A stretch of 63,622 nucleotides of DNA, the filler included, from Asterionella formosa (Eukaryota): assembly GCA_002256025.1 (NCBI GenBank). It is 27 parts of 27 records of this genome, joined end to end, with 100 filler letters (N's around TTAATTAATTAA, not from the genome) between each part and the next. Parts side by side here need not be neighbours in the genome. Positions count along the whole stretch, not along the records: positions 54,381 to 55,448 come from NKIB01004552.1; positions 55,549 to 56,616 come from NKIB01004553.1; positions 56,717 to 57,784 come from NKIB01004554.1; 24 more parts are not named here. One strand, written 5' to 3'. The position numbers were made by a program, and so were the translations under genes. The notes below the pieces were generated by a model. The model worked only from the letters and a program-made list of their open reading frames with translations, made no database searches and was not told the origin of the DNA. Numbering within the stretch: position 1 is the stretch's first letter; each line of letters opens with the position of its first letter. This document shows, in pieces, positions 7,550-58,951 of the stretch.

Positions 7550-8190
7550 GTTTGATTTCTGTTTAATCTCTCCCACGTGTGTTTTAAATACGCCTTTTTC
7601 TTTGTTGTGGTCGTGTTTGTAATTCTATGTAGAGTCCTTCCCTATTTTACGGGAAATAGTTTCCGTTCCACCTCATGTCGTTCAATTCTACATGCAAGGT
7701 CCAAAATTCATTCAGTCACACCGGAACTTTTGTCCCTCATCCATGTATGAATGTATATATGTATGTATGCATTATATCATACACACATTTTAAGTAATAT
7801 GCCGGTAGTGGTGATGAAAGGGCTTTTGGGATAATTGAATTTATGTATAAAAAGTGTAATAATTAAGGTTCCTGCATTTGAACCCCTAGGCAAAAATTAA
7901 AATATTGCTTAGGGTTGCCGAAATTCCCTGGAACTAAGAATTTTTATGAGTTAATTTTGAATGACGTGATTCCAATTGAAATATTTGAATCACTGGAAAT
8001 TTGCGCGTACATACATAGATTCCTTTTCGAATTCAATAAATATATACATAAACGTTCTCCATCGCTCAATGTTTATATACCCTATCATACNNNNNNNNNN
8101 NNNNNNNNNNNNNNNNNNNNNNNNNNNNNNNNNNTTAATTAATTAANNNNNNNNNNNNNNNNNNNNNNNNNNNNNNNNNNNNNNNNNNNN

Positions 8191-10109: not shown

Positions 10110-12641
10110 ATGACAAACAAACAACAAAGAATCCCATTGCCACAACAAAATAACAGTCGGACAGTCCTCACCGCCATGAACCTCTCCTACATGGATATGC
10201 AAATTAGCAGCGATGGAAGCGTTCTAGGAAGAGAGCAAATCAGGGAATTGAGGATGCGACAGGGCTTCTGCACAGAATGTCGAGGCGAGCCAATACGTCT
10301 CTTCAATATCAAAACAAATCGTTACAATCCACTGTGGAGCACCAAGGAACCCAGAAATGTAGAAGGTGAATGCATCAATGGCAATTGTTTTGCTTGTCAC
10401 CCAGAACTCAATCCCAAGAAAGGAAGGCACCTGCGCTCGTCCAAGAAGGAGCTAAGCCGAAAGCAAGCGGCTCCTCTTGTTCATTCGTTTCCAGATCATA
10501 GTATTGAGCACAGACGACCATCTCTGCGAGCTCAAGCAGATGGAATCCACCACTATACGAACCATCCTACCGGCGGTAGTCTTGGAAGTTCCAGACAACG
10601 TACAACGCGCTTCCATTCCAATGCCGACACCGAAATTTCAAACTTTGGAGAAGCTTCTGCATCAAAGTATGGACCTTTGGAAGGAAGCTACCACTCTCTG
10701 GTGAACTCTCTTGAAAGATATTCTACAACGCACCGAGATAGCAACGATGCCGCTCAAGACATCCATATCTCAAATTTAGGAGAGTCGACGATGGTATCCG
10801 ATTCTTCTTCTGGATTATTTGAAATTCAGAATGTTGAGAGTGATCGAAGTGATCTCGACAATTTGGAAACAATTTACACTCAATGCCGTAGAAAAAGCTT
10901 TTTGCGGAATGTGCGACCAAGTAGCTTCCGCTCAAGCGAGATCCACAATGAAGCATCAGCCTCTGAAACCACTTCTACGCCAGAAAATAACAGTTTTGAC
11001 GCGTCGGATCAAAGGCTAGAATTATCAACACCATCTACCCCAACCCCAAGTGACATTCTTGATGCTGAGGTAACATGGGCCGTTTTAGATCAGCCAGAGC
11101 AACCTCAAGTGACACGGTTGTCAGCTCCAATCAATACGGATTGTTTTCATAATTCAGGAACGCATTCCGGGCGATCTTCCGTTGTCGGAGCGTTTCATCA
11201 TCGACCGGGATCAACAAATATGGAGGCGACCTCTCGCCACACACCAAATTATGAAATTATGGTGGAAGAATTGGAATCTTTGGTAAAAGATTTATCTGCA
11301 TCAGGAAATCCTGATCTCACTTCCGACGTCGTTGTTAATGCGATGAAGGTGTATCCAATGGCAAAACCAGTTCAAGTCTTTTGTTTGAAAACGATTTGGA
11401 ACCTCTGCAAAGACGACGATGCTTATAAGGCCAGCATTATTTCAACAAGTGCACCCGATGATATCTTGTTGGCAATGATGAACCACATCGCGTGCCCTGT
11501 GGTACAAGAACGTGGTTGTGGAGCCATATGGGCATTGTCCGTCAATCAGCACAATCGCATCCTAGTTTCCAGAGCGGGAGCCCCCGCTCGGGTTGTCCGA
11601 GCTATTATGGACCACAAGAGCAATGTAGACGTCATGAGAACTGGGGTCGGGACTCTGCGTGCCTTGTCTGTTGAACCAGAAATTCAAGAGATTTTGTCGG
11701 AGTTGAACGCGAAAGAATGGGTCGCAGAAGGTATGGCGATTCATCGATCTGTCGCATGTATTCAGAGAGATGGTTGTGCATTCTTGTCCAATGTTACTGT
11801 TGATCTAGACGAACATCAGGTTTCAGTAGCGACTGAAATGGAAGTTCGCACTATTGTTGATGCTTTGAAAGCTCACCAACAGGAACCTTCGGTCATCACA
11901 GGAGCATGCTTTGCGTTGAAGAATTATACTTTCGACACGCAGAACCTTCGTATGCTTGCAAGTTTTCCTGACGCCGTCGAACTACTGGAATACGCAGCTC
12001 AACATTCTCCCGAAGCAAATAGCCGATTTGATGCACAGACTATACTTAAACGAATTCAAGAAATTGAGCTGGAAGGAAATGCACTTGATGAGCAAACATC
12101 CGCATCAATGGTTGATCTCGTGCAACAGGAAAGCGTGCCGTTCGACGCAGTGTTGAAAATCATCGATGCAATGAAAAATAATGAATCATCGGTTATGATT
12201 GCCGCTGAAGGGCTTCGATCGCTTCTTACTCTCGCACACGACTCGGATTTGCACCGAAATCGAATCAACGACGCAGCGCTCAAGCGAGTCATTACTTCCA
12301 TGAGACGCCATCAGGAGGACGCTTCGATCCAAATCAGTGGCTCTAGCCTGCTAGAGGTGATGGCTGCATACAATGAAAAATGTCGTTACTCAATCATCGA
12401 TAGTAATGCCTGCTTAGTCATTGTAAATGCTATGCGCCAACATGCTAATGATATTTCGGTCCAGGTCTCTTGTTGTGGTGCTTTTCGAGCTCTATCGATT
12501 GAGTTTGAATGTTGGTTCTTGTTGGAGCAAAGTGGCGACGCCGCAATCTTCCAAGAAACCATGGTTAGGCACCGAGAGTCCTCTATGGTTCAAAACCTCG
12601 TGTCGGAAATTCTCACAAACCTTTCGAGACACAGTGCATGA
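10110..12641 (+). CDS. 843-aa protein: N-terminal Cys-rich motif, disordered linker, C-terminal armadillo repeats
   Basis: Long intronless ORF with GFCTEC...CFACHP and ARM-like motifs such as VQERGCGAIWALS and IQRDGCAFLSN. Confidence 0.85.
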   Translation: MTNKQQRIPLPQQNNSRTVLTAMNLSYMDMQISSDGSVLGREQIRELRMRQGFCTECRGEPIRLFNIKTNRYNPLWSTKEPRNVEGECINGNCFACHPELNPKKGRHLRSSKKELSRKQAAPLVHSFPDHSIEHRRPSLRAQADGIHHYTNHPTGGSLGSSRQRTTRFHSNADTEISNFGEASASKYGPLEGSYHSLVNSLERYSTTHRDSNDAAQDIHISNLGESTMVSDSSSGLFEIQNVESDRSDLDNLETIYTQCRRKSFLRNVRPSSFRSSEIHNEASASETTSTPENNSFDASDQRLELSTPSTPTPSDILDAEVTWAVLDQPEQPQVTRLSAPINTDCFHNSGTHSGRSSVVGAFHHRPGSTNMEATSRHTPNYEIMVEELESLVKDLSASGNPDLTSDVVVNAMKVYPMAKPVQVFCLKTIWNLCKDDDAYKASIISTSAPDDILLAMMNHIACPVVQERGCGAIWALSVNQHNRILVSRAGAPARVVRAIMDHKSNVDVMRTGVGTLRALSVEPEIQEILSELNAKEWVAEGMAIHRSVACIQRDGCAFLSNVTVDLDEHQVSVATEMEVRTIVDALKAHQQEPSVITGACFALKNYTFDTQNLRMLASFPDAVELLEYAAQHSPEANSRFDAQTILKRIQEIELEGNALDEQTSASMVDLVQQESVPFDAVLKIIDAMKNNESSVMIAAEGLRSLLTLAHDSDLHRNRINDAALKRVITSMRRHQEDASIQISGSSLLEVMAAYNEKCRYSIIDSNACLVIVNAMRQHANDISVQVSCCGAFRALSIEFECWFLLEQSGDAAIFQETMVRHRESSMVQNLVSEILTNLSRHSA

Positions 12642-13873: not shown

Positions 13874-16237
13874 ATGGACAACGCAATACCATCCTTCGAA
13901 TCTTCATTGTTTAGTACCACACGAAGAGAGAACAAGCCATACCCCTTGAGCCCCACTGCCTTTCCAGATCCATTAGGGCTTTCCCTTGGTGTTCAGCAGA
14001 CGGCAGAACCTCTGGATCTTTCCAGCCACAAGCCCATGTTCCCGGACGCCAGACTAGAACAGTTCAAGAAGGGAGATTCAGTGGGACGAGAGTCATCGGC
14101 AAACACGTATTTAAGAAGAAAGCCAACGCTAGACAGCCGAGAAGACGAAACAAGTCGAGAGCTAAATATTCAATCGACAAATATGCACGAACGTAGACTT
14201 GCCGAGAAGGAAAGGTATCCTAGTAGGTACGACGACCAACGAAGAACACAACGAATCGATCCAGACTTTGATTCACGAAACCAGAGACGGGTAAAGTCAT
14301 TAGAACGTCGACAAGTAAAAAGGCCAGACCTCCATTCGAGTGGTATTGAGTATGTACGTGACCGAAGAGATCACTCGTTCGATAAAAACGACATGAGAAG
14401 ACGGGACGATCAACATCGAATCGACGACCGATGGGAGGAAGTGAGCGATGCTAGTTTTGGCCAAGAAGGCTACCGAGGAACAAGAAGAAATGAACCCGAT
14501 CATAAAGTTCTGGAGCCTAGCAGTAGATTTTCCGATGAGTACGGCCGCGAAAGTATCCAATTGAATGAAGGATTGCGCTCACCCCGACGGTATTCAGTAG
14601 CTCAGGACTTTGTTGAGCGAGGACCTCTTCATTTCTACGCAAACGAGGACGTTCCAGCTCATCACCCTTCACCACGAGTTGCATACCAAAATCATGGAGC
14701 CCGTGTTGACCGACAATTCGATGATGATTATGTGGTACGACGACAACTAACAAGACAGCTCGCTGACGACGGCGCTTACGACAGATATATCTCTCGAAGT
14801 CCTAGGCACCCTTCCACCTCCCATCGAACCAGATCTGACTTTTCTGACCAATACGACGTTGATCAAACGAGATCGATCGGATATGCTCTGGACGATAGCG
14901 ATGCTGATTTTCCTATTGTTCGTTCGCCTGTATACGAGAAGAAGGACCAACGGAGGAGCGGGCGGGGTCGATCGCCTCTTCGAGACACCATTCGACATGA
15001 TCACGGTACCAGAGTACATGATAACATGATTGTCCGCAGTTTAAGTAGAGTGTCACCAAGATTAAGATCCAAGAGTCGAGAAAGATATCTATTCTCTGGT
15101 GGCGATCAAGTTGAACAGTCACATGCAACGCGACCTTACATGAGGGAGGCAAGGTTTTCTGACGAATACGGAAACGACCGTTCACGGGGTACTCGAGAGA
15201 ACACAATAGAATCCGATCGGCGCAGTGTTGGCAGCAGTCTTAGCGACCTTGATCCAATAACACCACGACGAGAAGTGCGAAACAGGCGCGAGGACGAATG
15301 TTCAAGTGAAACTTCATCAATTCAACAACATCATCGTAGGCATCACCATGATGAAACAAGTCTAAGCGAAGAATCGGAATCAAACTACTTTGCTGGACGA
15401 GGGAGAGGAAGCGATAGGCTGTCGAGGTCGACTAGCAATTTAAGGTCTCATCGTGCAACAAGTGAAAGTGCTGACCGAAGGATCACCACACCTTCTCATT
15501 TCGTCATCGAAGTGAAAGAAGAAAGTAGACCTGAAGAACGTGGGGTTACTTTCTCGCCTTCGACGGAACTTCCTGCACCATCTCGCAGTGCCCGTAGTGA
15601 CTTATCGGAGATGTCTCAGACTTCGGCAGACCGTTCATATTTGAAGAGGCTAGCTGATGCTGCATTGATTAAAGAGGAGTCCGAAGCTAGGCATCAAATC
15701 CTTCGAGAAGTGCGTCAAGCGATGGAAATGCGAGACATATCTACTGATGCGGATGACCACTCGTTCTGGGAGAAACAAGTTGCAACATTGAATGCGTCCT
15801 TGAAGAAGTTGTGCTCTCAACATTCCTCGACTCCAATCAGGAAAATTACGGAAACTGGTACTTCCATGAATTGGAACACCCCGTCACCTTCACAGAGCAC
15901 TTACACCACTGTGAAGGTTCAAGCTCCAGAAAATCTTCCTGCCGGTCATCAGTTTACTGTGCGATTGAACGGACGGGTCTTGAAAGCGACAGTACCAAGC
16001 GGAGGTGTTCGAAAAAATGACGTTTTTTCTATTCGAATCCCTTTGGACCCAGTTGAACCAGAAAGTCCAATGCGATCACCTTCACTGTCATCAGTTAAAA
16101 TTCGAGCTCCTGCTTCCCTTCCAGAGGGTTATAGGTTCACAGCCAAGATGGGTGATCGCACAATTGTTGCAACTGTGCCTCCTGGGGGAGTGCAGAAAGG
16201 TCAAATCTTTTCAGTTCCAGTGGTCGACGAGCAATAA
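13874..16237 (+). CDS. 787-aa Arg/Ser/Asp-rich protein with a coiled coil and a duplicated C-terminal ~45-aa domain
   Basis: Long ORF with two copies of V.V.AP..LP.G..F....G...ATVP.GGV.K...FS. Confidence 0.8.
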   Translation: MDNAIPSFESSLFSTTRRENKPYPLSPTAFPDPLGLSLGVQQTAEPLDLSSHKPMFPDARLEQFKKGDSVGRESSANTYLRRKPTLDSREDETSRELNIQSTNMHERRLAEKERYPSRYDDQRRTQRIDPDFDSRNQRRVKSLERRQVKRPDLHSSGIEYVRDRRDHSFDKNDMRRRDDQHRIDDRWEEVSDASFGQEGYRGTRRNEPDHKVLEPSSRFSDEYGRESIQLNEGLRSPRRYSVAQDFVERGPLHFYANEDVPAHHPSPRVAYQNHGARVDRQFDDDYVVRRQLTRQLADDGAYDRYISRSPRHPSTSHRTRSDFSDQYDVDQTRSIGYALDDSDADFPIVRSPVYEKKDQRRSGRGRSPLRDTIRHDHGTRVHDNMIVRSLSRVSPRLRSKSRERYLFSGGDQVEQSHATRPYMREARFSDEYGNDRSRGTRENTIESDRRSVGSSLSDLDPITPRREVRNRREDECSSETSSIQQHHRRHHHDETSLSEESESNYFAGRGRGSDRLSRSTSNLRSHRATSESADRRITTPSHFVIEVKEESRPEERGVTFSPSTELPAPSRSARSDLSEMSQTSADRSYLKRLADAALIKEESEARHQILREVRQAMEMRDISTDADDHSFWEKQVATLNASLKKLCSQHSSTPIRKITETGTSMNWNTPSPSQSTYTTVKVQAPENLPAGHQFTVRLNGRVLKATVPSGGVRKNDVFSIRIPLDPVEPESPMRSPSLSSVKIRAPASLPEGYRFTAKMGDRTIVATVPPGGVQKGQIFSVPVVDEQ

Positions 16238-17272
16238 TAGTCAACCTAGTGGTATTGTTGCCCCCACCGCTTTTTGTGAAGCCCAGTATTTCGCTCACAA
16301 TAAAGCATATGTGTTAATAAATGTCACTTTTTTACTTGATATTCTGGAGTTTTCTGAATTCTTCCCCTGATACAACAGCTAAGGACAAATCCAAAAGTGA
16401 GAAAGGTTTCAACTTGGACACAATGAAATTTGGTCCAAAGGGAAAAACAAACATGACATGGCTTGATGTTTAATTGCTGCCAGGAACCCTCTGTCTCATA
16501 ACAGTTGCATCAAATTTCCGAACCCCAAGTGTATTTTTGGACAGATTTTAAAATTCATATGTAGACAACAGACCATTTTTCTACGAGAGGGTCAGCTTAC
16601 TCGGAAAAATGCGCTTTTTATTACTTATTTAGATGCGAGAATCTTGGAATCACCATTTAAAATATTAGCATCTAAATAAATTAATCGAAACCAATTTAAC
16701 ATTCTTTAATATATTGAGTACATCTACATATTGCCAAATGCTGTTTTACATTTGCCCGCCACTCTAATATTTGTGGAAAATGGAATAACACAAAATCCAC
16801 TATCATAATTACAATATCAGGAGAATAACAGTCATTCCATACACATTACGGTTACTACATTTACATTGACTGTACCACTGGATATTTCATGGCTCCAATG
16901 ATCAAAACAAGCATATCATCATCGTTTTCTTCCTTTGCATCATCGCCAGGTTGCGCAATCCACAATCAAAGTCAAGTTGCCATTGTTCTACTGTTATATC
17001 CTACTTTGTATGCATGCTTTATGTATGATGTTGCAAATATAGCAGTAACCTGGTAGGCTGTTGCATCAGGCATTGGTAATCAGCCACTGTGACCATGGTG
17101 TCTATAAATTTAAAATTATTAAGTAAATTTGCTTTATAGTATGCAATTGTTAAAGAACTCGACAATTGTAGAGGTTGTGAAGTCACACTTGGCTCCCCAG
17201 AGGGCCTTAGACCTGCTTGTTGCTTGTCTGCCTCACCACCTGGAACCCAAGGGACTACATAAACAAAGCAGG

Positions 17273-17341
17273 TGGAGAATGCGGTGGGAATTGAACCTGC
17301 CACCTTGGAAGGTGAGCTAACCAACTGACAAGCTATTCCCC
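17273..17341 (-). ncRNA. tRNA-Ala-like module, copy 1 (dispersed repeat, not a canonical tRNA)
   Basis: Reverse complement reads GGGGAAT AGCT..TGGTT AGCT CACC TTCCAA GGTG GCAGG TTCAATT ..GC ATTCTCCA. It aligns with 56516-56577, including about 35 nt of 3' tail. Confidence 0.6.
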
Positions 17342-18217
17342 TGTGACCATGATGTATATACATATAGATATAATGTTACATATGTTCATAGTATTGGCAG
17401 GGCTATCATGGGGTGGCGGTTGTGTCTGTTCATGTAGCTAGTATATACTTAATAGGCATAAGGGTCATTGAGAAAATCTATTTGTATTTGCAAGTTCTAG
17501 TCGTTGTCAGTAGTTAGCAAATACTAGTCCTAGTCTGCAAATTCTAGTTGTTGTCAGCAAATTGTAAATGTAGAAAGATGATTCCTATTTGTATTCCTAA
17601 GCTAGAAGACAGTTTGCTGAAGTGGTTCATTAGTCAGCAAGAAATCCAAGCCATGTTCAGAGACTGATTCTGCAAATTTTCATCAGTCAATTAGAGTTAC
17701 GTATTTTCCTGAATTGTTGAGGAATATTAATTCCATCAAAAGCTGCCCTATCTCGTCTGGCAGGCAAAGGGACAAATCATTGGGAATGAGTCGAAACTGA
17801 AAAGGTGCGCATAAACGTGTGCTACAAGTACTGGGTCTCCCTCGCTTCGGCCGTCGTCCATGGAAAAACTGGGGGCTGGGCTTCTTTGCTATACTGGAAT
17901 ACAGTAAGTACGGTACAATTATTTTTTATTATACCGGTAGCTGGGTACCAACACCCTACCGTAATACCGGTAGGGAGGATGCAGACAGGAACCAGTCGTA
18001 CATTTGTACGATGACAAGCGAGAAAGCAACCCCACATAAAAAGGAGTAAAGCCGGGTCCGCTGTTGCTGCTGTGGTTCCATTCCGGCCTGGCCTGGCCTC
18101 GTTCTATTTAATTATCTATACGATACCAAGTATACTCCCAATCAACATTATCGCCATCATCATATACCGGGTATTCTGAGAGAGGACTCATCTCTCGCAA
18201 CTTGTTGAAGCGTAACA

Positions 18218-19013
18218 ATGAGCACAAGCGCAAGACGCCGCCTTCTCCGTGATTTCAAAAGGTTCGTGCGGTTGTTTGCTTGACAGACGAGATTGTGTTT
18301 GCCTGGGAGAGAGGGCCACGGAAGGAAGGACTGAAATGGGAATAATTCAGAGGAAAAGCCTTTCTGGCGTAGCGTTCACGTACCACTCAGTACTCGTGAC
18401 GTTTGGATGGAAAATGTTCCGACCGTTGATGCCATGGAGTGTTTCCGATCACGTTCATGAAGCTTCAGACGAGATCTGCAAGCGCTGACTTGGCGTTCTT
18501 GGAGATCTCGGTCCAGTTCGCCTTGTTATCTTTCATTCCCGTTATCCTCTCGCTGTCTGTACTCACATGTCCTTGGGTTCGCTCTGCAATTCCAGGCTCC
18601 AGAATGACCCGCCATCAGGTGTAACAGGTGCTCCCATGGATACGAACATTATGTTATGGCAGGCAGTCATCTTTGGGCCCGATGACACCCCCTGGGAAGG
18701 GGGCACCTTCAAGCTTGTCTTGGAGTTTACGGAGGATTATCCCAACAAGGCGCCTCAGGTTCGCTTCTTGACGAAGATGTTTCACCCGAACATTTACAAC
18801 GATGGTCAAATCTGCTTGGACATTTTGCAAAATCAGTGGTCTCCGATCTATGACATTTCAGCCATTTTGACCTCGATCCAATCCTTGTTGTGTGACCCAA
18901 ACCCTGCATCACCTGCAAATTCGGAGGCGAGTCGACTTTACAACGAGAATCGACGCGAATACAATCGCCGCGTGAGAGAGATTGTAGAACAAAGCTGGAT
19001 TGACGAGTCATGA
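18218..19013 (+). CDS. UBC2: Ubiquitin-conjugating enzyme E2, RAD6/UBC2 (exons 18218-18261, 18596-19013)
   Basis: [24 protein letters not shown]...[21 protein letters not shown]. The GT-AG intron restores the frame. Confidence 0.95.
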
Positions 19014-19308
19014 GAAGGGTCTAACGTGGAGGGCGAAGCAAACAATCCGAATGTGGTTCCAGCCTTTTTTCTTTGAACAAGGGCAAGGGGCGATGTAGAT
19101 CACTTTACTCACATGCTGGAAGTTGTAAATGATTGTTGCATGATTCTCAAATAAAAAGGTCTCATCATTGCCCTAAGATAACATGTGTTGCTTACATAGT
19201 TACTATCATGAATCATTGCGCCTGATTTTCGAACCATCCTGCGCACATTCCCGATTGATATTGTGTCCTTGTCGTTGACTAAGGTGGGGCGGCTGATTCA
19301 CATCCCCT

Positions 19309-20600: not shown

Positions 20601-21622
20601 ATGATTCAATTTATTGTCAAGTTTTTGGTTTGGATGGTATTCGTATCAATGACCTCTTCCGAAATCCAACTAGGGGGTGGAGCGATCGAGCTCACGTCGC
20701 GGACATTTGACAAGTCGGTTCGCGATGGAAGTGTTTGGATCATTGAATTGTACGGTAAGGCAGAGACTGTGAGATGCAAATGGGTGGGTATACATTATTT
20801 AGACAAATGTGATGACTCATTCTAGACTATTATATTTACATATGTAAATACCGGTATACCGGTACTGTTATTTGATTGGACGCAATTGGTTCACATCAGC
20901 ACCATGGTGCATCCACTGTAAAACAATCGCTCCAAGTTATGAGGTACGTCATGTGATGGTGTTATTGATTGGCGGTGTAACAATGTCGAGGGACCAGGGT
21001 TCGGAAGTTTCCAAGGTTAGATTTGGCTGACTAATGTTCGGAAACTAACCTATCTGCTGAACTTCGAAACTATCTACACACAGAACTTTGCTCGATTACT
21101 TCATGCAGAAAACAAAAAGGGATTGAAGCAAATTAAAGTTGCCAAGGTCGATGCTGATTCAGAACGAGCCATTGTTTCGAGGTTCAATATAGCCGGCTTC
21201 CCTTCGTTCTACTTGATCGATGGTTGGAAAGTGTACGAATACAACGAGGATCTAAGTGCGGCCAGTATGATGTCCTTTGCCAAGGGTGGATACAAACAAC
21301 AAGAGGTGAGTGCATGTTGTGGAGCACTGTTCCTTTGTTTTCTAAAAGCCTTCTCCCCGTTGGCTAGTGCTAACCATCGTGTGCGTCTATCGGGAAGGCC
21401 CTTCCATTTTACTCGTCACCCATGGGACCTCTTGGACAGATTCAAAGTATGTTGTTGGTTATCGCGATTCAAATATTGACAACCTTTGAGTGGATGCAAG
21501 AATACTTTGGCCTTTCACCAATCGTGGCTGGTCTTGTTATGGCATCAACTGTCCTCTTTTCTGGAGGAGCTTGCATGATACTGTTAGTGTTCATGTGGGT
21601 ATCAAAGCAAAAGTTGGACTAG
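20601..21622 (+). CDS. Membrane thioredoxin/PDI-family protein, TMX-like (exons 20601-20754, 20900-20943, 21084-21305, 21398-21622)
   Basis: Signal peptide; spliced YAPWCIHCK active site; VAKVD and GFPSFYL motifs; C-terminal TM helix and KQKLD* (KxKxx) ER-retrieval motif. Confidence 0.85.
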
Positions 21623-21737
21623 TTTGGGGATGTACTCGTTCTAAAAATACATTGCAATATGACTGGAGCTACCGGTAGTCTACAGTTTGGGAATATACTA
21701 AATGTAGGTATGTGATGCGAACTTGTGTATACATCTT

Positions 21738-30356: not shown

Positions 30357-31074
30357 ATCGACCATTGAATATCCCCTGTAGATATGCACAGCAATAAAAC
30401 AAGAATGCATTGCTATTATGGCCCATTCATCAGCTTGCAAGGGATTTGACAAAGCATTCCACTGACTCTCTGTTAGATTCTCATTATACTGCTGGCCAGA
30501 CTACTTTGGTGGACCTAGGGACTATCATGGGTTATTTGCATCATTCACGTGTCAATTCTTAGGAAACTTTGGTGTACTAGTTACAAGAAACTACATTCTC
30601 ATTTTCCAGGGTACCTGACTTTCGAAGTTGAAATGCTACCAACAAACTACTGATAAAAATAACATTGTCCAAGACTGCAGATGGAGTTCAAAGTTTCTGT
30701 CATTGCCATGGAAAAATTCATTGAAAATATTTTTAAATTTAAGACCAAAGTTCCTGCTGCTGTATATTCTTAATAGTCTACCCAAATATTCTGTGTTGAT
30801 TTCCTACTGATTCTAAAGGAACCACTAAAAAATATTCTGATTCTATGGAGTCTCCTTATTGCCATCATGTATCCTCCTAGTATTTGACTCATTCATAAAA
30901 TGGCTTGTTGTACTAGACTGCTCCCTGAATTAGAAATCTATTGACCCTTCCACTGTATCTGGTGTGAATGCGTGTATTTTGAATGTTAATTCTCTCCCCT
31001 CTAGTATTAGTCGATGCATACAAATGTATCTGTTTGTCTGCAGCAAAAATATGAAAGTTTGTGCAGGATGGTAA

Positions 31075-31152
31075 GGAGTGTGGGAGTCGAACCCAACAAT
31101 TGCTTCTAAAAAATTGCGGGAGTCGAACCTCACCACCACTAAGCCATTCCCT
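31075..31152 (-). ncRNA. tRNA-like module, copy 3 (internally deleted, with a second B-box)
   Basis: Reverse complement AGGGAATGGCTTAGTGGT-GGTGAGGTTCGACTCCCGCAATTTTTT matches copy 2 with the middle deleted. A second GGGTTCGACTCCC follows. Confidence 0.5.
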
Positions 31153-32420: not shown

Positions 32421-33404
32421 CAGAGACAGGGGATAATACGATGATAACATACTATCAATGTCATGTTCTACTGTCTCTGTGGGCCAATGAATTGGGTAAG
32501 TTTATTGGATTGGGATTTTTTTAACATGGTGGCCACAATCACCATTCCCGTGATCAGTACCATGTTGATCTTTTGGTTGCTGAAAAGTGAAACAAGCAAC
32601 AAAAGTCCAGCATTGGTACCCAATTTTATGTCAATTAAGAAAATTTATCACATAAGAGCTATCCAATAATCGCACTTGGGCCCAAATAATTGTATAGGTT
32701 ATCTCTTTCTTCCCATTGGGTACTTTGCTTGATGAATACCACATTGGTCAAGTTGCAATGTTGATCCAATTGTTCTGCTTTCTCAGGATGCTCTGGCTTG
32801 AGCAAACAAGTTTTCTTTCTGAATGCAGCTGTATTTGTTAGTGATCTCTGTGGATTTGGCAAGACAACTGTTTTTCGCTCCATTCTTGTTGGTCTCTTCT
32901 GGAATATCCATCAGTGAAATCTCCATATTGGATATTTAGGAGTCATAGGAGGACTTTGAATTTCACTCTTTTCAACATCCATGTTCTTCATTGGACACTC
33001 TGGTACTTTCATGGGGTCCATGTTTATGCTCTGACTGAGGCTGTCTGGAGACTTAAATGATCTCTTGGTACCTGATGTTTTCGATGTCGAAATGCATATG
33101 CATTGATTGCTAGTAAAAATTTAAACATTGCTTGGAAATATATATATAATACCTTTGCTGAATTGTTCTATTAAGGTCACCTTGATCGGATGATGCATGT
33201 GACAGATTGGATCATGCCTGCATACAAAGCAAAATTATTACATTCAAAACATGAAAAACAGCTGCAGATATGAGCATCTCAAAGTAGCTATCATGACTTT
33301 TTTAAGCTAAGTGCAATGCCTTTATGGGGTCACTTAACAAAAATACTTGAGCTAAAGCAATCCTGATGAAAGAAATAGCATTATAGCATTACAAGCATCA
33401 CCCT

Positions 33405-37987: not shown

Positions 37988-39280
37988 TTACTCCCCTCCT
38001 AGAATTCGCAACAGAAAACCTCTGAGACCTTTTGTGTTTCGCTTCCCTAAATTGTCTTCCAATGGCGGTGGTTTCTTGAATCCCCTTGTGATAGCTACTC
38101 GGGTTTCCTCCAATGTTGCGTCGGGACCAAGTGGGCTCTTTGTTTGGAGCCGGCGATCTTTATAGAAAGTTGCAGCTCGTTTGTCGTCAGGAGGGCCATC
38201 TTTTGTTTGAAAATCACAAGCTAAAACAGTAATGCTCATTCCTTCCGTCATTGTTGGATCCACCAAAGCTCCAAAGATAATATTAGCGTTGTCATCGGCA
38301 TTTTCAAAAATAACTTCTGATGCTTCGTGGATCTCTTGAAGGCCCATGTCTGGTCCACCTACAATATTGAAGACGATTCGTCGAGCCTTGCGAATTGGAA
38401 AATCAAGAAGGGGGGATGAAATAGCTGCAATGGCGGCATCAGTTGCTCTCGTCTTTCCAACCCCGGTTCCAACTCCCATGAGGGCAGATCCCGCATCCTT
38501 CATCACTGTTCGGACATCAGCAAAATCTACATTAACAATACCAGTCTTGAGGATAATTTCAGAAATACCAACAACTCCCTGTCGAAGAATATCGTCAGCG
38601 ACCAAAAATGCGTCCGTAACTGGCGTGTTTTCTGGAACGATTTGCAGGAGCTTATCATTCGAAACAATAATGAGCGTATCGACGTGCTTGCGCAATTCGT
38701 CAATCGCCAGCTCTGCTTGCTGCTGTCGACGCTTGCCCTCGAACTGAAACGGCTTTGTAACCACTCCTACAGTCAAGCATCCACAGTCCCTCGAAATCTC
38801 AGCCAGCACAGGGGCAGCTCCCGATCCGGTTCCTCCGCCCATTCCTGCCGTGATGAATACCATATCACTGCCCTCGCAAAGTTTCTTCAACTCTTTGTAA
38901 TTCTCCTTGGCTGCCTCTGCACCTACCTTTGGATCACCTCCTGCCCCCAATCCTCTGGTCAGTTGTCTTCCAATGTTTAGCTTGTTTGTTGCCAAACTCT
39001 TGCTGAGAGCTTGCGCATCTGTATTGACAGCCCAGAAGCTGACTCCTTCAATTCCGGTCGAAATCATTCGATTGACTGCATTTCCACCTCCGCCTCCAAC
39101 GCCAATCACCTGGATTAAACATGGAGGAGCCAGGTTCGGAACTTCCTTGTTATTATCTTCCCTGGTCGAGTAAAGCTTCGGATAGTGATCGTTCAGCGGT
39201 GATCTTATGAAAAATGCCGACGTCGATGATGACAGTGATAGAAGCAGGCCTAAAATACAACGAGAAACAATCTGAATCAT
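37988..39280 (-). CDS. ftsZ: Plastid division protein FtsZ, nucleus-encoded
   Basis: IQVIGVGGGGGNAVNRM, GMGGGTGSG and NVDFADV motifs; bipartite presequence with an SSTSA-FF cleavage site. Confidence 0.97.
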   Translation of the reverse strand: MIQIVSRCILGLLLSLSSSTSAFFIRSPLNDHYPKLYSTREDNNKEVPNLAPPCLIQVIGVGGGGGNAVNRMISTGIEGVSFWAVNTDAQALSKSLATNKLNIGRQLTRGLGAGGDPKVGAEAAKENYKELKKLCEGSDMVFITAGMGGGTGSGAAPVLAEISRDCGCLTVGVVTKPFQFEGKRRQQQAELAIDELRKHVDTLIIVSNDKLLQIVPENTPVTDAFLVADDILRQGVVGISEIILKTGIVNVDFADVRTVMKDAGSALMGVGTGVGKTRATDAAIAAISSPLLDFPIRKARRIVFNIVGGPDMGLQEIHEASEVIFENADDNANIIFGALVDPTMTEGMSITVLACDFQTKDGPPDDKRAATFYKDRRLQTKSPLGPDATLEETRVAITRGFKKPPPLEDNLGKRNTKGLRGFLLRILGGE

Positions 39281-39637
39281 TGTCGCTGCTTACTATCTCC
39301 TGCAATTCGACTGACTTAAACCCTTTTTCGTTCCGACCTGACCGGTTGTAAGAAGATCAGGGGCGACAAACAGGCTGCCAGGAGAAAGCTACTTTCCAAA
39401 ATCAGTTCAATTAAAACGTCAAAGAATGCAAAATCTCCATTTTCCATGCAAGAGCGCAACAACAACAATGCACGGTACCCCTGTTACATGGTACCTTGTA
39501 CGTACCTGGTACCACGTGGTACCTGGTAACAATATTTGCATGCTGGGTTTTATTACCTGATTGAAATCTATTTTGTAACATCGTACGTACCTTGTACAAA
39601 TATGTTTTACTGTGTTCGTTAGTTACTACATTAACTG

Positions 39638-50776: not shown

Positions 50777-51622
50777 NNNNNNNNNNNNNNNNNNNNNNNN
50801 NNNNNNNNNNNNNNNNNNNNTTAATTAATTAANNNNNNNNNNNNNNNNNNNNNNNNNNNNNNNNNNNNNNNNNNNNGTTGGAATTGAAAGCTGCAGAGAT
50901 CTTGTGAATGATTTGAACTTGGCACTGAACGCAGCCTTTGAATCGTATGAGAAGTAGGACACCAACCTTCTTCGGCGTGCTGCATGGCTGGTGGAAGTTG
51001 TCTCGTGGTTAAATTCGTCTGAAGCCGATAACAGGGTTGTGAAAACTCTGAACGATCGGGATAGCTGGATTTCTTCTCGTTTTCCCCTTGCAGGCAGGAA
51101 AATACTTGCCAAACTACAAGTAAAGGAGTACCGGTATTATAATTTCTTGTCCGAGAATGCAGACTACAAGGCGCTGAACTCTGCAGTAGTATGTTACGCC
51201 AAAATATGGTCACACGGTATGTAGGCACATTTTCCCTCAAAAATGGAAATCGTATCCTTCTGATGTTCCTGGTACCTGGTACCTGGTAGTCAAATTATTA
51301 GTCCTCAGCATTTTCACCATAAAAAAATAATTTTACTCTCACAGAATGTTATACTACGACCTGGTACCAGGTACCGATGTCCGGGGACCTTAATTCAGAA
51401 AACTAAAATACCAGGGGTACCTATCCTAGAGGCGCGAGTAAAGGTTGACCGAACTAGTGGCGGTGGGGTACCAGGTACCAGGTACCGGTAGACTACTCAT
51501 ACCAAATACCGGTATGGTACCAGCCGAACTTCATGAAGGTGAATCTTACGAAATAATAAAAATAAAAATAAAAAACGAGGACAGTAGCTTCGAACTCCGC
51601 GCCTGTGAATTAAAAGTAAATT

Positions 51623-51704
51623 CGACGACGGTGAGATTCGAACTCACGCGCTCATAGAGCAATGGATTAGCAATCCATCGCCTTAACCACTCGGCCACGT
51701 CGTC
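51623..51704 (-). tRNA. trnS-GCT: tRNA-Ser (anticodon GCT)
   Basis: GACGACG TGGCCGAGTGGTTAAGGC G ATGGA TTGCTAA TCCAT, long variable arm, GTGAG TTCGAAT CTCAC CGTCGTC G: a complete cloverleaf. Confidence 0.97.
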
Positions 51705-52785
51705 ATCAATTTTCCAGCACACTGGAACTTGAAAAATTGTGAAGACTGATAAATTTTATACCTTGAAGAAAACTCAAAACATAATCATAAAAATTTTTTG
51801 CTACCGGTAGTAGAGTAGTTCATATTGGATAACATGTTACAAATCGAAATCTACCTGCAGCGTTAATTTGCATTACTAAATCTAGTTCCACGTACGACTT
51901 CGTACCGGCAGTACTCATTCCAATTCCAAACTGATACATTTGTCNNNNNNNNNNNNNNNNNNNNNNNNNNNNNNNNNNNNNNNNNNNNTTAATTAATTAA
52001 NNNNNNNNNNNNNNNNNNNNNNNNNNNNNNNNNNNNNNNNNNNNAGGACTTACGGGAGGGCAGTTGCCATTTTCGATTTTTGGATGAATCAGCAATAATG
52101 CTGCCGCCATATACCGGTAGTTGGGAAGGATAGAATTGCAATTGATTGTTTATTTTAGTCCTATTACCATCTCTGGACGACAAAAGGATCGACAGCCAAG
52201 CAAGCGTCTTTACTTATTATTCAAATGGAGTTGCTATTTTCAATTTATTTTCTATTTTGCCGGTGCATTGTACATTCGACTCCTACGACCCGCCCCAAAT
52301 CGCAATCCGATTTGTTGGGTTTTTGGTTACTAACTACCAGTAATGTCAAGAATTTTAGCCCGAGTCACAAGGATTGTGGACTCGATTGTAATCGAACGAG
52401 TCGAATATTGCATTGCCACGTCAATCAGCTGTCTAACGAGATCAGAGATTGAAGATTTCTATGGAAATGTTAAGTGGAAACTCGAAGAGAGTCTTAGAAT
52501 GACTTTGCAGGAAGCAAAGATGCATGGAAAGGAAACATTTAGTTTAGCTTATAATTTAATTTGAGATTTAGATTATCAACCGAGGAAACAGTGTGTTAAT
52601 TGACAGGAAGGTCAATTAGTCTATCTAGCAGGAAGGCTAGAAGCAGAGACAAGAGAGAAAGTAAGTGGTACTAGGTAGTACTACGATCACGTAAGAGTCT
52701 ACGTGAAGAGAGACCCAACCCGCGGGAAGGAGTACGGACCATTTCAACACGCTTTAAAGCGATAGGTTTGAAAGGGTACTCAAGA

Positions 52786-55031: not shown

Positions 55032-56515
55032 CTACTTTAATCTTCATTGAACCCCGCATATGTAGAGCAATCCTCCTCCAAAAAGTCGACCCGATCGGCT
55101 TTTTCAACAGTCGCCAAAATATTGGAATTGGAATTTCTATGTGCAAAACATTCTCGTATACTTAGAGTCTTGTGTAGGTATGTTTGCTGCTTAATTCTCA
55201 GTCCGAAAACCCTTTGGGGTACATTGCCGCGTCACTACACATATTCTGATTGGTTGAATTGAATTTACTCACCTGCTCCACATTGGCTGAAGTATTACAG
55301 CCACACTTGAGACACTTGAACCACATGTATTGGATATTAAAATCTGTACCGGTACACCGGTTCTAGTTTCATCCTGTCTTCCATGATCGTCATGGACCGA
55401 GATAATGCACTAAACTAACGGTACACTGGTATCAGGGTACCTGGTACCNNNNNNNNNNNNNNNNNNNNNNNNNNNNNNNNNNNNNNNNNNNNTTAATTAA
55501 TTAANNNNNNNNNNNNNNNNNNNNNNNNNNNNNNNNNNNNNNNNNNNNTTGTTATTTGCCTTTCAAGTTTCTAATTCCAAAACTATATAATTTTTAAATG
55601 AGTGACGCTACAGTCTTATCCAAAGAAATGGGTATCACCTTGTACTTTTGGGGGGTTGAGGCTGTTTTCTTACTCTCGTAGGTTTCATCGTTGTTAATGA
55701 GATGACTGCGATTTGCCTCAATTTTTGGTGTGTCGGAAGCAATTTCTGCTGTCAATTACGGTCTCTGACATGAAAATATGGCTCCATTTTTGGCCTTCAA
55801 GAAATATTGCATTCATTTACTAAGAGTGACTAATTTACTCATTTATTGCTATAGTACATGGTCCATGGCGGTTAAACGCAAATAAATATATATTAGATAT
55901 AAAGTGTTCTACACAAATGTATATATGTATTACCAGGAGATGCCGGCTCAATGGTATAATATTTTTTTGCCACTTTTGAGCCAATCGCTACTTTCTGACA
56001 CATTTATCTGATTATCTAAAATACAATACGTAATCAACAACTAGATATGTTGTGTCCGGCGCAACATCAGGAACAACTTTGTCGTACTAAATGTAGTCAT
56101 AACTGGAAAATTAGAAAAAATCTATGTATACATTGTGAATATTATATCGTTAAGTGACTCAAAGCCATTCTTCGAAGTGGCTCAAAGCCATTTTTAACTG
56201 GTACCAGGTAATCTTGTATAGCATCTCACAAGGACTGTGGACTCGACTAAAGTCCAATGAGTCAAATGGTGCGTTCCCATATCAAGACGCAAGCTTGGTA
56301 ACAAGATTGGTTAACATCAACAAAAAGGGAACACAAAGAACAGGTTCTTGAAGTGTGATGAATAGGATTGAAGCTTAGTTTTATTTTAAGCTCATAATTA
56401 AGAAACAGTGAGAATTGACAGAGTAAGGTCAATAGCGAAAACTAGCACGAAGGCGCGCTAGCAGCAGAAAGCAGAAGATGACAATACTAGTATATAAATA
56501 GGTAAGACCTATGTA

Positions 56516-56577
56516 GGGGAACGGCTTAGTGGTTAGCATACCCACTGTGGTGGCGGGTTCGATTCCTGCATTCTCCA
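56516..56577 (+). ncRNA. tRNA-Ala-like module, copy 2, with upstream TATA and downstream T5
   Basis: Acceptor GGGGAAC/ATTCTCC-A with G3:U70, D-arm GCT/AGC and T-arm GCGGG-TTCGATT-CCTGC. Only 15 nt separate the D and T arms. Confidence 0.65.
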
Positions 56578-57884
56578 CCTGTCTTTTTCATGTAGTCCCT
56601 ACTAGGGTTCTGGGGGNNNNNNNNNNNNNNNNNNNNNNNNNNNNNNNNNNNNNNNNNNNNTTAATTAATTAANNNNNNNNNNNNNNNNNNNNNNNNNNNN
56701 NNNNNNNNNNNNNNNNGTGTTGCTTGTATGCCCATGGTAGATCTTGTTTCTACTTCCTCAGAGCGTCTAATTGAGTCTATTGAATCTGATAGACTTGATA
56801 TAAAATCTCCCCCTCCTTCCAAAGCAAAAGCAAAATTTCAATTAAAGGCAACTCCAGACATGGTTGCCAATCTGGAAGAAGCAGTCCATGAATTGTCACC
56901 AAAGAGTTCCGAAATTGTAGGAGTGATTGGGAAAGTAAATAAAGAACAGGTCAAGGAGGAAAATGATTTATCCCATTTATCCAGCAGTAACAAGTTGGAA
57001 TTATTGAAAGAGGACAAGGTCACCAGTCTGGATGTAGTTCATGGGTGCATTTGGTGGCATATCGTTGTCTTTCTGATGTAGTCTAAAATCTCGAGGAAAG
57101 TGCCGAGTTTTCCATAAAATCATCGCTGGTTCTATATGATTCCGAGATTTCTTTGAAGTTTCAAATGATGTTTTGTTAAACAAGCCAGACTTTGGGACCA
57201 CATAGAATTTGTTGAGAACAAAATCCAGGACACTGTCATCTAGTCTCCTCTTCTCCTCGCCTTTGTCATCATGATCAAAGTATCTGACCAGTAAGAGTCG
57301 TTCCTTACTCTTCTGTTGTCTCTTGAACAGACATGAAAAACTCCATAGAAACAGGTTTTTCCTGATTGAAAAATCTGCGATTGGATTCCCCTTCACAACA
57401 AAGATCATTCCATTCCTTGTAGCACTTGGAACATTTGCCATTCCAGATAACAAGTGATATATTGCACTATAGATAGCTTGCAAATGTCAAGTTGTCAAGA
57501 AAAACGTGACTGTAACAGAACAAGGAAGCAGAAAGGGATAATGGTCTGTCAACTATAGGATTAGACAGTGGGCGAGTGTTGGATTGGAAGCGATGCAGCA
57601 CCGACATATTCAGTAATATACATTAGATTGGTAGCGCAAAGCTACAGTTTCATAGTAAAAGCTTAGTAATAGGTACAGTTTCACTGTAGCCACATCATAT
57701 TCCAACCGGGTATTGAACCGGGTATTGAGACAAGGGGAAGAAGGGAATGCTGGCTGGTAGGGCAAACCTACAGTTTCACAGTACNNNNNNNNNNNNNNNN
57801 NNNNNNNNNNNNNNNNNNNNNNNNNNNNTTAATTAATTAANNNNNNNNNNNNNNNNNNNNNNNNNNNNNNNNNNNNNNNNNNNN

Positions 57885-58951
57885 CCACTGCCATGACCCA
57901 GTACTGATTGCCAACAGCAAATTTCGCGTAGGGTCCGCTGATGTCCACAAACAGTCTCTCTCCAGGTACCGTCGATTTTTCTTGCGTTGTTTTTGGGACG
58001 GCTCGTGCTTTAGCTTTCGCTGCCGCACAGCCTGCGCACACTGTCATGATGCCGCTCAACTTCCATCCAAATAATTTTGCCGTATCGTGCAAACATTTCT
58101 CGCCCACATGACCAAGCATCGCATGCGCTTCATTGATATCGACAATCACATAATTATTTTCAAACTCACCATTTTGATTATTCCATTTGTTCTTTCCTTT
58201 GTTCGTTTTCTTTGCTTCAACTTTCGTCCAATCGTTTTCGTTGTAGTCGTCGATCGATTGTTGTGTCGCGTTCTCTTGTAGTTGATCGACTTCCATCACC
58301 GTTTGCTTGATGATCGGATTACCTTCGACATGATACATTGCTCCGAGCTTTCGAGTTTTATCTCTTTTGCAGGTTAGAAAACCGCTCTTGTTTCGTATCG
58401 TCATCCTATCGTCCTCGAAGATCACTTGATTACCCTTGTCGATCATTCTAGAGACACTGATGATGTTCTGCTTGAACTCCGGTGCATAAAGCACATCGGT
58501 GAGTTTCAAGCGTTTTCCTTCGTCCGTAGTCGTCAGGGTTACAGTACCAGAGACAGTTGATACTATCTCAGTTCCATTCCCTACCACGACCGTTTCACTC
58601 ACTTGTTTCTTGTCTTCCATCATGCGCACGTCTGTGCAGATGTGAACAGTAGCACCGCTGTCTAACAACCAGCGATTTCTGACGTCACGAGCGAGGTTGA
58701 CTTCCTCGTTGTAACTAATTTCGACGCACGTGCTGGCGACGAACATTCCTTGCTGCTGGGTAGATGTAGTCGTGTTGTTCTCTTCGTTTCTATTATTCTT
58801 AGATGCACTGTTACTAGTGCACTCTCTTGCGTAGTGTCCCATGCGTTGGCACTTGAAACACTTGATCGTTTTCCTCTTTTCTTTCTGCTCAGGAGTGAGC
58901 TCCTTCTTTTCGGCACTATTGCCCTTGCTGCGACATTCAGCCGCCTTGTGG
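57885..58951 (-). mobile_element. Ty1/copia gag-pol fragment (zinc knuckle, protease, pre-integrase, integrase start)
   Basis: CFKCQRMGHYAREC, WLLDSGATVH, HAMLGH..CAGC..KA, PGERLFVDISGP. Confidence 0.95.

Follow-up and report, generated by a model that had tools for sequence, protein, structure and literature searches.

tRNA-derived SINEs consist of a tRNA-related head, a body of unknown origin and an A/T-rich or LINE-like tail. Pol III-type units are also found in other mobile elements, such as the Cassandra TRIM, which carries a 5S-derived unit in each LTR and shows 5-bp duplications; the duplications of MULE elements measure 9-11 bp. The cellular RNA mascRNA arises by cleavage of a Pol II transcript, outside any retroposon. 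The tRNA-derived class has reportedly been reviewed by Kramerov and Vassetzky in 2011.

Several diatom genomes carry annotations of putative SINEs. P. tricornutum has an entry of this kind with 13 copies and 1,454 bp (PMC5859163), Cyclotella cryptica (PMC7466962) and Pleurosigma (PMC12803021) have similar annotations, and in Skeletonema costatum and P. tricornutum SINEs are given as 0.2% of the genome (PMC8147415). According to the available parts of the genome papers, the roles of these putative SINEs are not understood (PMC7466962, PMC8147415, PMC5859163). In another stramenopile, the oomycete Phytophthora infestans, the accessible text on infSINEm describes 32 copies with low expression and shows that this family is connected with small RNAs and silencing (PMC3429519). 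A full-text literature search returned no title or abstract describing how a diatom SINE family is built.

The DNA analysed in this work (the window) is a stretch of 63,622 nt from Asterionella formosa, made up of 27 contigs joined by spacers. The dispersed tRNA-like units found in it are most probably, with a probability of about 0.85, copies of a high-copy tRNA-derived SINE, a non-autonomous retroposon of this freshwater diatom. They agree with the general class in length, in the head with A and B boxes, in the variable duplications, in the A/T-rich targets, and in having truncated copies, subfamilies that share the head and a high copy number. Unlike the general class, the diatom element has a 14-nt hairpin instead of an anticodon arm and lacks the variable loop; its tail is not poly(A), and one of its forms contains an internal T5. 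With the putative SINEs of other diatoms it shares the host group and the class label, but those, as far as the available descriptions tell, are automatic repeat-library labels that come with no account of anatomy, boundaries, target-site duplications or tRNA origin, and in P. tricornutum the copies are very few. For the present element, by contrast, both anatomy and duplications are documented, and the pieces are counted in hundreds. As described, infSINE is likewise a non-autonomous SINE with an internal Pol III promoter; on the same basis, the copy number in the diatom seems to be much higher. The element is therefore of an ordinary kind, and what makes it of modest interest is its occurrence in a diatom and the reduction of its head, diatom SINEs being hardly described in the titles and abstracts retrieved. 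Diatom genomics gains a defined retroposon, with head, linker, subfamilies, tail and target-site duplications, which can be used in the search for an active LINE partner, as a source of insertion markers among freshwater diatom strains, for annotation masking and in studies of the effects on neighbouring genes.

Copies of the element

Copies 1 and 2 had been proposed as related units in an earlier note on this DNA, and their homology is confirmed by blastn (75% identity over 93 nt, E 4e-11); the linker located 3' of the tRNA-like part is common to both. Copy 1 (56516-56616, plus strand) comprises the first 101 nt only, the remainder being cut by the contig end at 56616. It matches the family profile at E 1e-29 (nhmmer), scores 86.5 bits with the head model, and shares 87% identity with the metagenomic copy L003 (99 nt aligned) and 91% with L002a (57 nt aligned). 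This c1-like form, characterised by a T5 run and a 3-nt ACT insertion, is placed with subfamily B by head and linker only. Copy 2 (17102-17341, minus strand) is a full-length member of subfamily A, of approximately 240 nt, in which the head (17270-17341) is followed by the linker, the body and an A/T-rich tail with T4. Its profile match reaches E 1.4e-61 and its head scores 79.1 bits; similarity to L002b is 75% over 141 nt. An ORF of 789 amino acids lies on one side of copy 2 and a ubiquitin-conjugating enzyme gene on the other, so the former statement that all the copies lie in TE-like DNA does not hold: this one sits between host genes.

A scan of metagenomes gave three extra copies in two contigs (L002a, L002b and L003), and all five copies are recovered by the profile search with E values from 1e-29 to 1e-61. 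Between its duplications the L003 copy measures 251 nt, so the full element has a length of about 240-251 nt, far below the size needed to code for a reverse transcriptase. The window also contains a 5'-truncated copy with the 3' module and tail of subfamily B (32620-32695, minus strand; outer limits approximate, set by eye). Its blastn core, 32657-32692, is 91% identical to L002 over 33 nt (E 7e-7) and 81% to L003 over 36 nt. Matches of the head model at 21614-21687 (13.8 bits) and others with E above 0.09 were judged to be due to chance, as were L004 and L005, found by the motif scan in contigs of prokaryote genomes and of alphaproteobacterial nature. The contig of L004 has a length of 10,763 nt, equal to that of L001 from the metagenome scan. 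The motif scan gave no match in viral contigs.

After the head comes a linker of about 40 nt, common to all the subfamilies, and then a body that differs between at least two subfamilies. A short 3' motif is common to both subfamilies and is present in the four copies that have a 3' end; judging from the sequence, its bearing on the LINE partner is suggestive only. The tails are A/T-rich and not poly(A), and those of copy 2, L003 and L002b include runs of T4-T6.

Target-site duplications and proposed mobilisation

Copy 2 is flanked by a duplication of 15 nt on the minus strand, located upstream at 17341-17355 (the last G is possibly the first base of the element) and downstream at 17087-17101. 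Both halves agree at 14 of 15 positions, a match reached by none of 5000 shuffles, and a repeat search extends the duplication to 29 nt at 83%. The duplication of L003 is modestly significant, with 10 of 12 positions matching without gaps (191 of 5000 shuffles) or 11 of 12 with one indel. Duplications were thus found at the exact ends in both copies that have both ends present, the other three being cut by contig ends, and they directly adjoin the first base of the tRNA-like head. The repeat search found neither terminal inverted repeats nor LTR-like direct repeats around copy 2 or L003.

In the proposed mechanism, Pol III would initiate on the first G of the head and continue as far as the T run of the tail. 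A putative LINE would supply the enzyme that reverse-transcribes this RNA where a chromosome is nicked in A/T-rich DNA, and the insertion would leave a duplicated target site (12-15 nt or more) and, occasionally, 5'-truncated copies. The 30 nt upstream of copies 1 and 2 are 73% A+T, versus 57% in the window. Of the 60 ORFs of the window with at least 110 amino acids, 50 were scanned with Pfam, and no LINE-type reverse transcriptase or endonuclease was detected in them.

Two motifs that the earlier note had assigned to copy 2 belong in fact to copy 1. One is the TATA-like A/T-rich sequence TATATAAATA (56491-56500, plus strand), which lies 16-25 nt upstream of the copy, outside the element. The other is the T5 run of the linker (56584-56588, plus strand), 7 nt beyond the discriminator base at 56577, which is a possible early stop for Pol III. 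T5 and linker together form the consensus of 40 contig ends from the sequencing run X1. Since the T5 is so close to the head and the only true tRNA gene of the window, a tRNA-Ser, has just T4 downstream, Pol III might stop before the body. Such an early stop would be hard to square with full-length retroposition of the c1-like form.

The tRNA-like head

The head of copy 1 (56516-56577, plus strand) has 62 nt and consists of an acceptor stem with G3:U70, a discriminator A, a D arm, a mini-hairpin and a T arm. The anticodon arm is replaced by the mini-hairpin, of 5 bp and 4 nt. The motif scan located both promoter boxes in copy 1 (A, 56523-56532; B, 56556-56566) and a B box at 17287-17297 in copy 2, where the strict A-box pattern has no match. 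The distance between both boxes in copy 1 (56523 to 56556) is 33 nt, because the anticodon arm has been cut to a 14-nt hairpin and the variable loop has gone.

The architecture formerly described, in which acceptor stem with G3:U70, D arm and T arm are kept around a shrunken anticodon hairpin, stands up well. G3:U70 is present in the four heads compared, and acceptor stem, T arm and mini-hairpin can be formed in all of them. A cloverleaf with acceptor stem, 3-bp D stem, mini-hairpin and T arm fits 90% of 80 cells, versus 38-49% in controls with slid partners, and it is also the minimum-energy fold of the L003 copy. Fold energies are no better than those of shuffled sequences (z from -0.8 to -2.1). 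Covariation of the stems, which the earlier note had proposed as a check, did not appear: among the four sequences compared, none of the 20 pairs shows a two-sided, compensatory change. Covariation is, however, not to be expected between the copies of a SINE.

Standard tools do not recognise the heads as tRNAs. ARAGORN calls no tRNA on them with default settings or with thresholds of 95% and 85%, and the tRNA-Ser that it proposes on the copy 1 stretch at 75% and 65%, which also spans the upstream flank and the downstream linker, is regarded as spurious. With the Rfam tRNA model (RF00005) nothing was found at the gathering score, nor at E<=10 on copy 1, copy 2 and L003; other Rfam matches at E<=10 on the heads (Plastid-ycf2 antisense, pieces of tmRNA T arms and mascRNA at 13.5 bits) are at chance level. 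Degenerate SINE heads are commonly missed by this tRNA model. Since it gives no match here, the tRNA origin of the head rests on motifs and fold. The parent was possibly a tRNA-Ala, to which G3:U70, A73 and the GGGG start point; G3:U70 and A73 are alanine identity elements.

Dispersal and transcripts

Dispersal was analysed with contigs from two runs, X1 and X3. X1, a run in which this organism is present, contains 0.91 of the words of window positions 16000-19100. Contigs were aligned on the 1317-nt stretch of L003, those of X1 at a likeness of at least 80%, which gave 3346 contigs from X1 and 470 from X3. The summed depth of X1 reaches 717,442 and 506,715 in the bins covering head and linker (529-616), compared with 17,570 and 29,992 in bins 485-528 and 749-792, respectively; single X1 contigs, among those listed, have depths of 319-921. 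A rough division by the depth of these listed contigs gives several hundred pieces, although summed depth is not a copy number and is uncalibrated. This count comes from mixed-sample contigs placed on a locus of another metagenome, and the flanks of L003 are repeats themselves. Places 1057-1144 and 1233-1317 of L003 are without cover and uninformative.

The earlier note had allowed for the case of only a few copies without shared boundaries. Instead, many contigs (31 from X1 and 18 from X3) leave the alignment precisely at place 519, where the element begins, and their sequence beyond this point is A/T-rich and unrelated. The consensus of their flanks is A/T-rich, with an agreement of only 0.43-0.45 (0.45 for the 31 of X1). 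At place 615 a single variant is found in 95 X1 contigs. The consensuses of the clipped ends from X1 and X3 show the T5 and the 3-nt linker insertion of copy 1, as well as the D arm and hairpin of copy 2; therefore both forms are common in the two runs.

In RNA data, which consist of Logan contigs and are uninformative on starts, ends and strand, element copies are present inside longer RNAs. A copy was found in at least one abundant transcript, abundant RNA contigs contain a 5'-truncated copy, and 98% of the aligned RNA contigs continue into unrelated sequence. No short or stand-alone transcript was seen among these contigs, which are nearly all longer chimeras. One RNA contig from X9 (247 nt, depth 3.3) covers places 519-756 nearly end to end; it was not counted as evidence of a stand-alone transcript, since repeat borders cause breaks in assembly graphs and some DNA may have been carried over.

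Alternative explanations

The boundaries and the dispersal of the element also bear on the alternatives to a retroposon. The tRNA-like head, and the fact that just two clear copies are seen within the window, would agree with tRNA pseudogenes or degenerate tRNA genes spread by DNA duplication, with no retroposition. This explanation is extremely improbable and largely refuted by the shared non-tRNA body of about 180 nt, the unrelated flanks, the duplications at exact ends, the hundreds of contig pieces and the 5' boundary common to 31 X1 and 18 X3 contigs. It is also very unlikely that the units represent a Pol III cassette in the LTR of a small Cassandra-like element, or the end of a non-autonomous DNA transposon such as a MITE or a MULE derivative. 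Copia fragments do occur in the window, on other contigs, and Cassandra resembles the diatom element in having a Pol III-type promoter within a mobile element. Nevertheless, the diatom element has no LTRs and no PBS or PPT, its promoter is of the tRNA type, and duplications (12 nt in one case, 15 nt or more in the other) lie immediately at its ends; copy 2 stands alone between host genes. A MITE would carry terminal inverted repeats, which are lacking here, and would show duplications of one fixed length; the variable length of the duplications (about 12 nt; 15 nt or more), together with the 5'-truncated copy, is as found in target-primed reverse transcription. Of the two origins put forward in the earlier note, the cassette within an LTR is not supported, given a duplication that adjoins the head, a unit of about 240-251 nt and no long terminal repeats, and the tRNA-derived SINE is favoured by the duplications at exact ends, the many copies with a common 5' boundary, the two subfamilies and the truncated copy.

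A different question is whether the head, within a SINE, is also a working small-RNA gene. A c1-like Pol III transcript of about 70-75 nt would be trimmed by RNase P and RNase Z to a 62-nt mini-tRNA which, having alanine identity, could be given CCA and charged with alanine, or else serve as a decoy, by analogy with mascRNA. Such a gene is very unlikely, although it would account for the G3:U70 kept in all four heads, for their foldable acceptor stem, T arm and mini-hairpin, and for a T5 after the head that recurs as the consensus of 40 X1 contig ends, when the true tRNA-Ser has T4. The nearest parallel to such a tRNA mimic is mascRNA/menRNA (RF01684), whose cloverleaf also has a shortened anticodon arm, and L003 519-577 gives a weak match to its model (13.5 bits, E 5.4). 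The likeness is one of layout only: the score is far under the gathering value of 42.5, and the head is not a member of that family. Against a gene of this type are also the lack of compensatory changes and of any short transcript, the RNA contigs being mostly longer chimeras. Moreover, the conservation can be explained by descent from master copies, in which case the G:U pair may be a relic. The c1-like form combines the T5 right behind its 62-nt head with G3:U70, A73 and a good T arm. It is likewise very improbable that Pol III stops at this T5 and that dozens or more c1-like loci each yield an anticodon-less alanine-minihelix RNA with a cellular role besides the life of the retroposon. If this were true, the minihelix RNAs could be trimmed, tailed with CCA and perhaps charged by alanyl-tRNA synthetase, and they might serve as decoy, sensor or primer of reverse transcription.

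A probable rearranged relative

The third unit (copy 3; 31069-31152, minus strand) is a rearranged tRNA-like relic that lacks the mini-hairpin and is not followed by the body of the family. It had been described as a deleted form of the unit lying near a copia gag relic. No gag or copia domain was found by Pfam at E<=0.1 in 18 ORFs around it, so the relic claimed there is not supported. Simple deletion does not describe the copy either, as its D loop contains an insertion of 27 nt with a second B box and T6. With blastn only a 17-nt stretch is shared, and the DNA profile gives E 0.032. The relationship itself is upheld by the head structure model, which assigns it 24.5 bits (rough E 6e-5), and 13.3 bits to the true tRNA-Ser of the window; copy 3 is probably, according to this model, a weak, rearranged and distant relative of the head.

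Structure of the element and its subfamilies

The tRNA-like units found in this DNA belong to a real family of tRNA-derived SINEs, dispersed in the genome of a freshwater diatom. The 63,622-base window joins 27 contigs, two long ones (about 17 kb) and 25 short ones (about 1.07 kb), with N/TTAATTAATTAA spacers between them, and copies 1, 2 and 3 each lie on a separate contig. In agreement with a diatom origin, a plastid-division FtsZ open reading frame (ORF; 37991-39289) was assigned to an Atlas cluster in which Bacillariophyta is the most frequent phylum (score 0.97). Copy 1 (56516-56616, +) is cut off at 56616 because it sits at the very end of the contig 55549-56616; other features near the 1-kb borders are likewise cut by contig ends.

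The homology of copies 1 and 2 proposed in the earlier note was confirmed within the window (75% identity over 93 nt, E 4e-11). Metagenome contigs were scanned with a pattern built from two stretches common to both copies, and three loci were returned. L002 and L003 are true relatives, and L001, a GC-rich bacterial locus, was rejected as a chance match. L003 contains one full copy and L002 two copies (L002a and L002b), each cut by a contig end. The element extends well beyond the unit originally described, and the alignment reveals a common architecture, in which a conserved linker, about 40 nt long, connects the 62-nt tRNA-like head to a body, and an A/T-rich tail closes the element. A short motif stands just before the tail in all four copies having a 3' end, and copy 2, L003 and L002b carry runs of T4-T6 in this tail. 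At least two subfamilies can be distinguished: the body of the first is shared by copy 2 and L002b (75% over 141 nt), and that of the second, in L003 and L002a, contains an (ATTT)n stretch together with a 3' module that is conserved. Over head and linker copy 1 is nearer to subfamily two (87% to L003 over 99 nt, 91% to L002a over 57 nt). A DNA profile made from the five copies recovers all of them (E 1e-29 to 1e-61) and gives no other convincing match in the window.

Ends and target-site duplications

Both ends are present only in copy 2 and L003, the other three copies being cut by contig ends. The full copy 2 occupies 17102-17341 on the minus strand (about 240 nt), and a direct repeat of 15 nt, imperfect at one position, borders it on either side (17341-17355 and 17087-17101); when the downstream region was shuffled 5000 times, no shuffle equalled this match at the boundary, and in a repeat search the similarity of the flanks extends to 29 nt at 83%. 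The L003 element (519 to 769, 251 nt) is flanked by a 12-nt repeat, matching at 10/12 positions ungapped (191 of 5000 shuffles) or at 11/12 with one indel. Neither terminal inverted repeats nor LTR-like direct repeats were found in copy 2 or L003, and the reading as a Pol III cassette inside an LTR, comparable to Cassandra, fails these tests.

At about 32620-32695 (-) lies a fragment in which subfamily two is represented by its 3' module and tail alone (L002: 91% over 33 nt; E 7e-7). It is a 5'-truncated copy or, with lower probability, part of a putative partner element.

Several details of the surroundings have to be corrected. The motif TATATAAATA (56491-56500) and the T5 (56584-56588), which had been assigned to copy 2, belong to copy 1. 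Copy 2 had been placed in TE-like DNA, and it is in fact preceded by a 789-aa ORF at 865 nt and followed by a ubiquitin-conjugating-enzyme ORF at 1148 nt; no gag or copia domain was detected (E<=0.1) in the 18 ORFs surrounding copy 3, near which a relic of this kind had been reported. Over the 30 nt preceding copies 1 and 2 the A+T content is 73%, versus 57% in the window. As for the upstream 'TATA box', the simplest view is that it came with the A/T-rich targets into which the copies inserted, and it could also help Pol III.

The tRNA-like head

The tRNA-like layout noticed previously is present. In the head, G3:U70 forms part of a 7-bp acceptor stem, and there are a 3-bp D stem and a 5-bp T stem with canonical loop; a 5-bp stem with a 4-nt loop occupies the anticodon position, the variable loop is absent and the discriminator is A. 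In L003 this layout is the minimum-energy fold. When four heads are aligned, 90% of 80 cells pair, versus 38-49% after sliding the partners by 1-3 columns, and G:U is found at pair 3-70 in all four. This structure is compatible with the data but has no independent support, since changes on both sides of a pair occur in 0 of 20 pairs among the four heads and the fold energies are not better than those of shuffles (z -0.8 to -2.1). Motif searches locate a B box in copy 1 (56556-56566) and copy 2 (17287-17297), and an A box in copy 1 only (56523-56532).

Copies 1 and 2 are not recognised as tRNA genes: in the window ARAGORN and Rfam (gathering score) report only the tRNA-Ser(GCT) at 51622-51705 (-, 66 bits), the sole true tRNA gene there. 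Even at E<=10 the Rfam tRNA model fails to match copy 1, copy 2 or L003. With its threshold set to 95% or 85%, ARAGORN makes no call in these three or in L002b; its calls below 85% were rejected as spurious. The combination of G3:U70 and A73 is the identity rule of tRNA-Ala and, together with the GGGG start, these sequence features point to tRNA-Ala as candidate parent. The mini-tRNA layout is similar to that of mascRNA, although the Rfam score is far below threshold.

Copy 3 (31069-31152, -) is recovered by blastn through a 17-nt A-box stretch only and by the DNA profile at E 0.032. A covariance model of the four heads gives it 24.5 bits (rough E 6e-5), versus 13.3 bits for the tRNA-Ser. In the model alignment it keeps the family acceptor 5' strand, the A box and the D-stem closure, followed by the T arm, the acceptor 3' strand and ACCA; just 4 nt remain at the mini-hairpin position, and the D loop has a 27-nt insertion bearing a second B box and T6. 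The family body is absent after it. Copy 3 is best read as an old and rearranged head relative or as a member of a sister family; the earlier description as a simple deleted form does not hold.

Dispersal, copy number and RNA

Between 0.82 and 0.91 of the words sampled from 16000-19100 are found in each of six DNA runs. Logan contigs from two DNA runs (X1 and X3) and two metatranscriptomes (X9 and X11) were aligned to L003 at a likeness of at least 80%, and the 1317-nt L003 stretch is matched by 3346 contigs in X1 and 470 in X3. The summed word depth in X1 reaches 717,442 (bin 529-572 of L003) and 506,715 (bin 573-616), with 198,010 at the 3' module and 17,570 and 29,992 in the bins directly outside the element; X3 has the same shape (12,581 and 10,287 versus 327 and 387 directly outside). 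Single listed contigs reach depths of 319-921 (X1) and 19-37 (X3), therefore something like several hundred contig pieces cover the head, a rough figure that is no copy number. The L003 flanks (45-480 and 793-1012) are themselves high-copy repeats in X1, where their summed depth is as high as 192,042, and the SINE is directly preceded by a tandem-like repeat of about 45 nt.

The 5' border is independently confirmed by contigs diverging exactly at place 519 of L003 (31 in X1, 18 in X3) into A/T-rich sequence with an agreement of only 0.43-0.45. One variant each is represented at place 615 (95 X1 contigs) and place 717 (82 X1 and 47 X3 contigs). The clipped-end consensuses carry the particulars of copy 1 (T5 and a 3-nt linker insertion; 40 contigs) and of copy 2 (D arm and hairpin; 34 X1 and 15 X3 contigs), therefore both window forms are abundant. 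From these shared particulars and the word content of 16000-19100 we infer that the X1 and X3 contigs stem from the organism of the window.

In the metatranscriptomes, which belong to one study and whose contigs cannot reveal starts, ends, strand or level, 44 (X9) and 41 (X11) contigs match. As 98% of them continue into unrelated sequence, the copies in RNA libraries are mainly within longer molecules. A 5'-truncated copy (places 561-756) is contained in abundant contigs of 625 nt in X11 (depth 4049) and 681 nt in X9 (depth 3036), and may be a SINE piece carried by a highly expressed transcript; its upstream sequence is identical in both.

Classification and comparison with other SINEs

The observation of the earlier note is confirmed in part, and its first reading, a tRNA-derived SINE, is supported by anatomy, duplications and high copy number. 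The anatomy is that of a SINE because the unit is short and non-coding, with a tRNA-related head bearing A and B boxes that is common to the subfamilies; because it has an A/T-rich tail with T runs and target-site duplications of variable length at its exact ends; and because the insertion sites are A/T-rich, some copies are 5'-truncated and the copy number is high. Following what is established for SINEs, Pol III would start at the first G of the head and stop in the tail, and a LINE enzyme would reverse-transcribe the RNA at a nicked target. No LINE domain appeared in the 50 ORFs scanned among the 60 of at least 110 aa in the window. In the form like copy 1 a T5 follows the head after seven nt, while only T4 comes after the tRNA-Ser gene of the window; should T5 terminate Pol III in this organism, full-length RNA of this form would need read-through or another polymerase. 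A bolder and improbable idea is that the head is made as an alanine-identity mini-tRNA, for which the conserved G3:U70 and the T5 are the only positive evidence.

No description of diatom SINE anatomy was found in the retrieved passages of the full-text literature, and supplementary repeat tables might list related consensuses. Those passages contain automatic 'putative SINE' annotations only (PMC5859163, PMC7466962, PMC8147415, PMC12803021): 13 copies totalling 1,454 bp in Phaeodactylum (PMC5859163), SINEs in Cyclotella cryptica with 'functional roles ... poorly understood' (PMC7466962), reports of SINEs for three species only by 2021 (PMC8147415) and a listing for Pleurosigma (PMC12803021). 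Phytophthora infestans, another stramenopile, has SINE families with internal Pol III promoters (PMC3429519).

Other features of the window

Fragments of copia-type retrotransposons lie on separate 1-kb contigs at 8190-9260 (-) and 57886-58950 (-), with RVT_2 and a retroviral SH3-like domain in one case and a zinc knuckle and Pol beta-barrel domain in the other. The T4 run of the tRNA-Ser(GCT) gene begins some 10 nt beyond its 3' end, and a TATAAAA precedes the gene by about 45 nt. A-box-like (12526-12535) and B-box-like (12587-12597) motifs (+), 61 nt apart, occur within an 847-aa ARM-repeat ORF; no tRNA or head-model match is found there (12526-12597), and they are probably due to chance. 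Finally, a stop-free frame of 118 codons (17022-17375, -) passes through copy 2 in the same orientation, most likely by chance.
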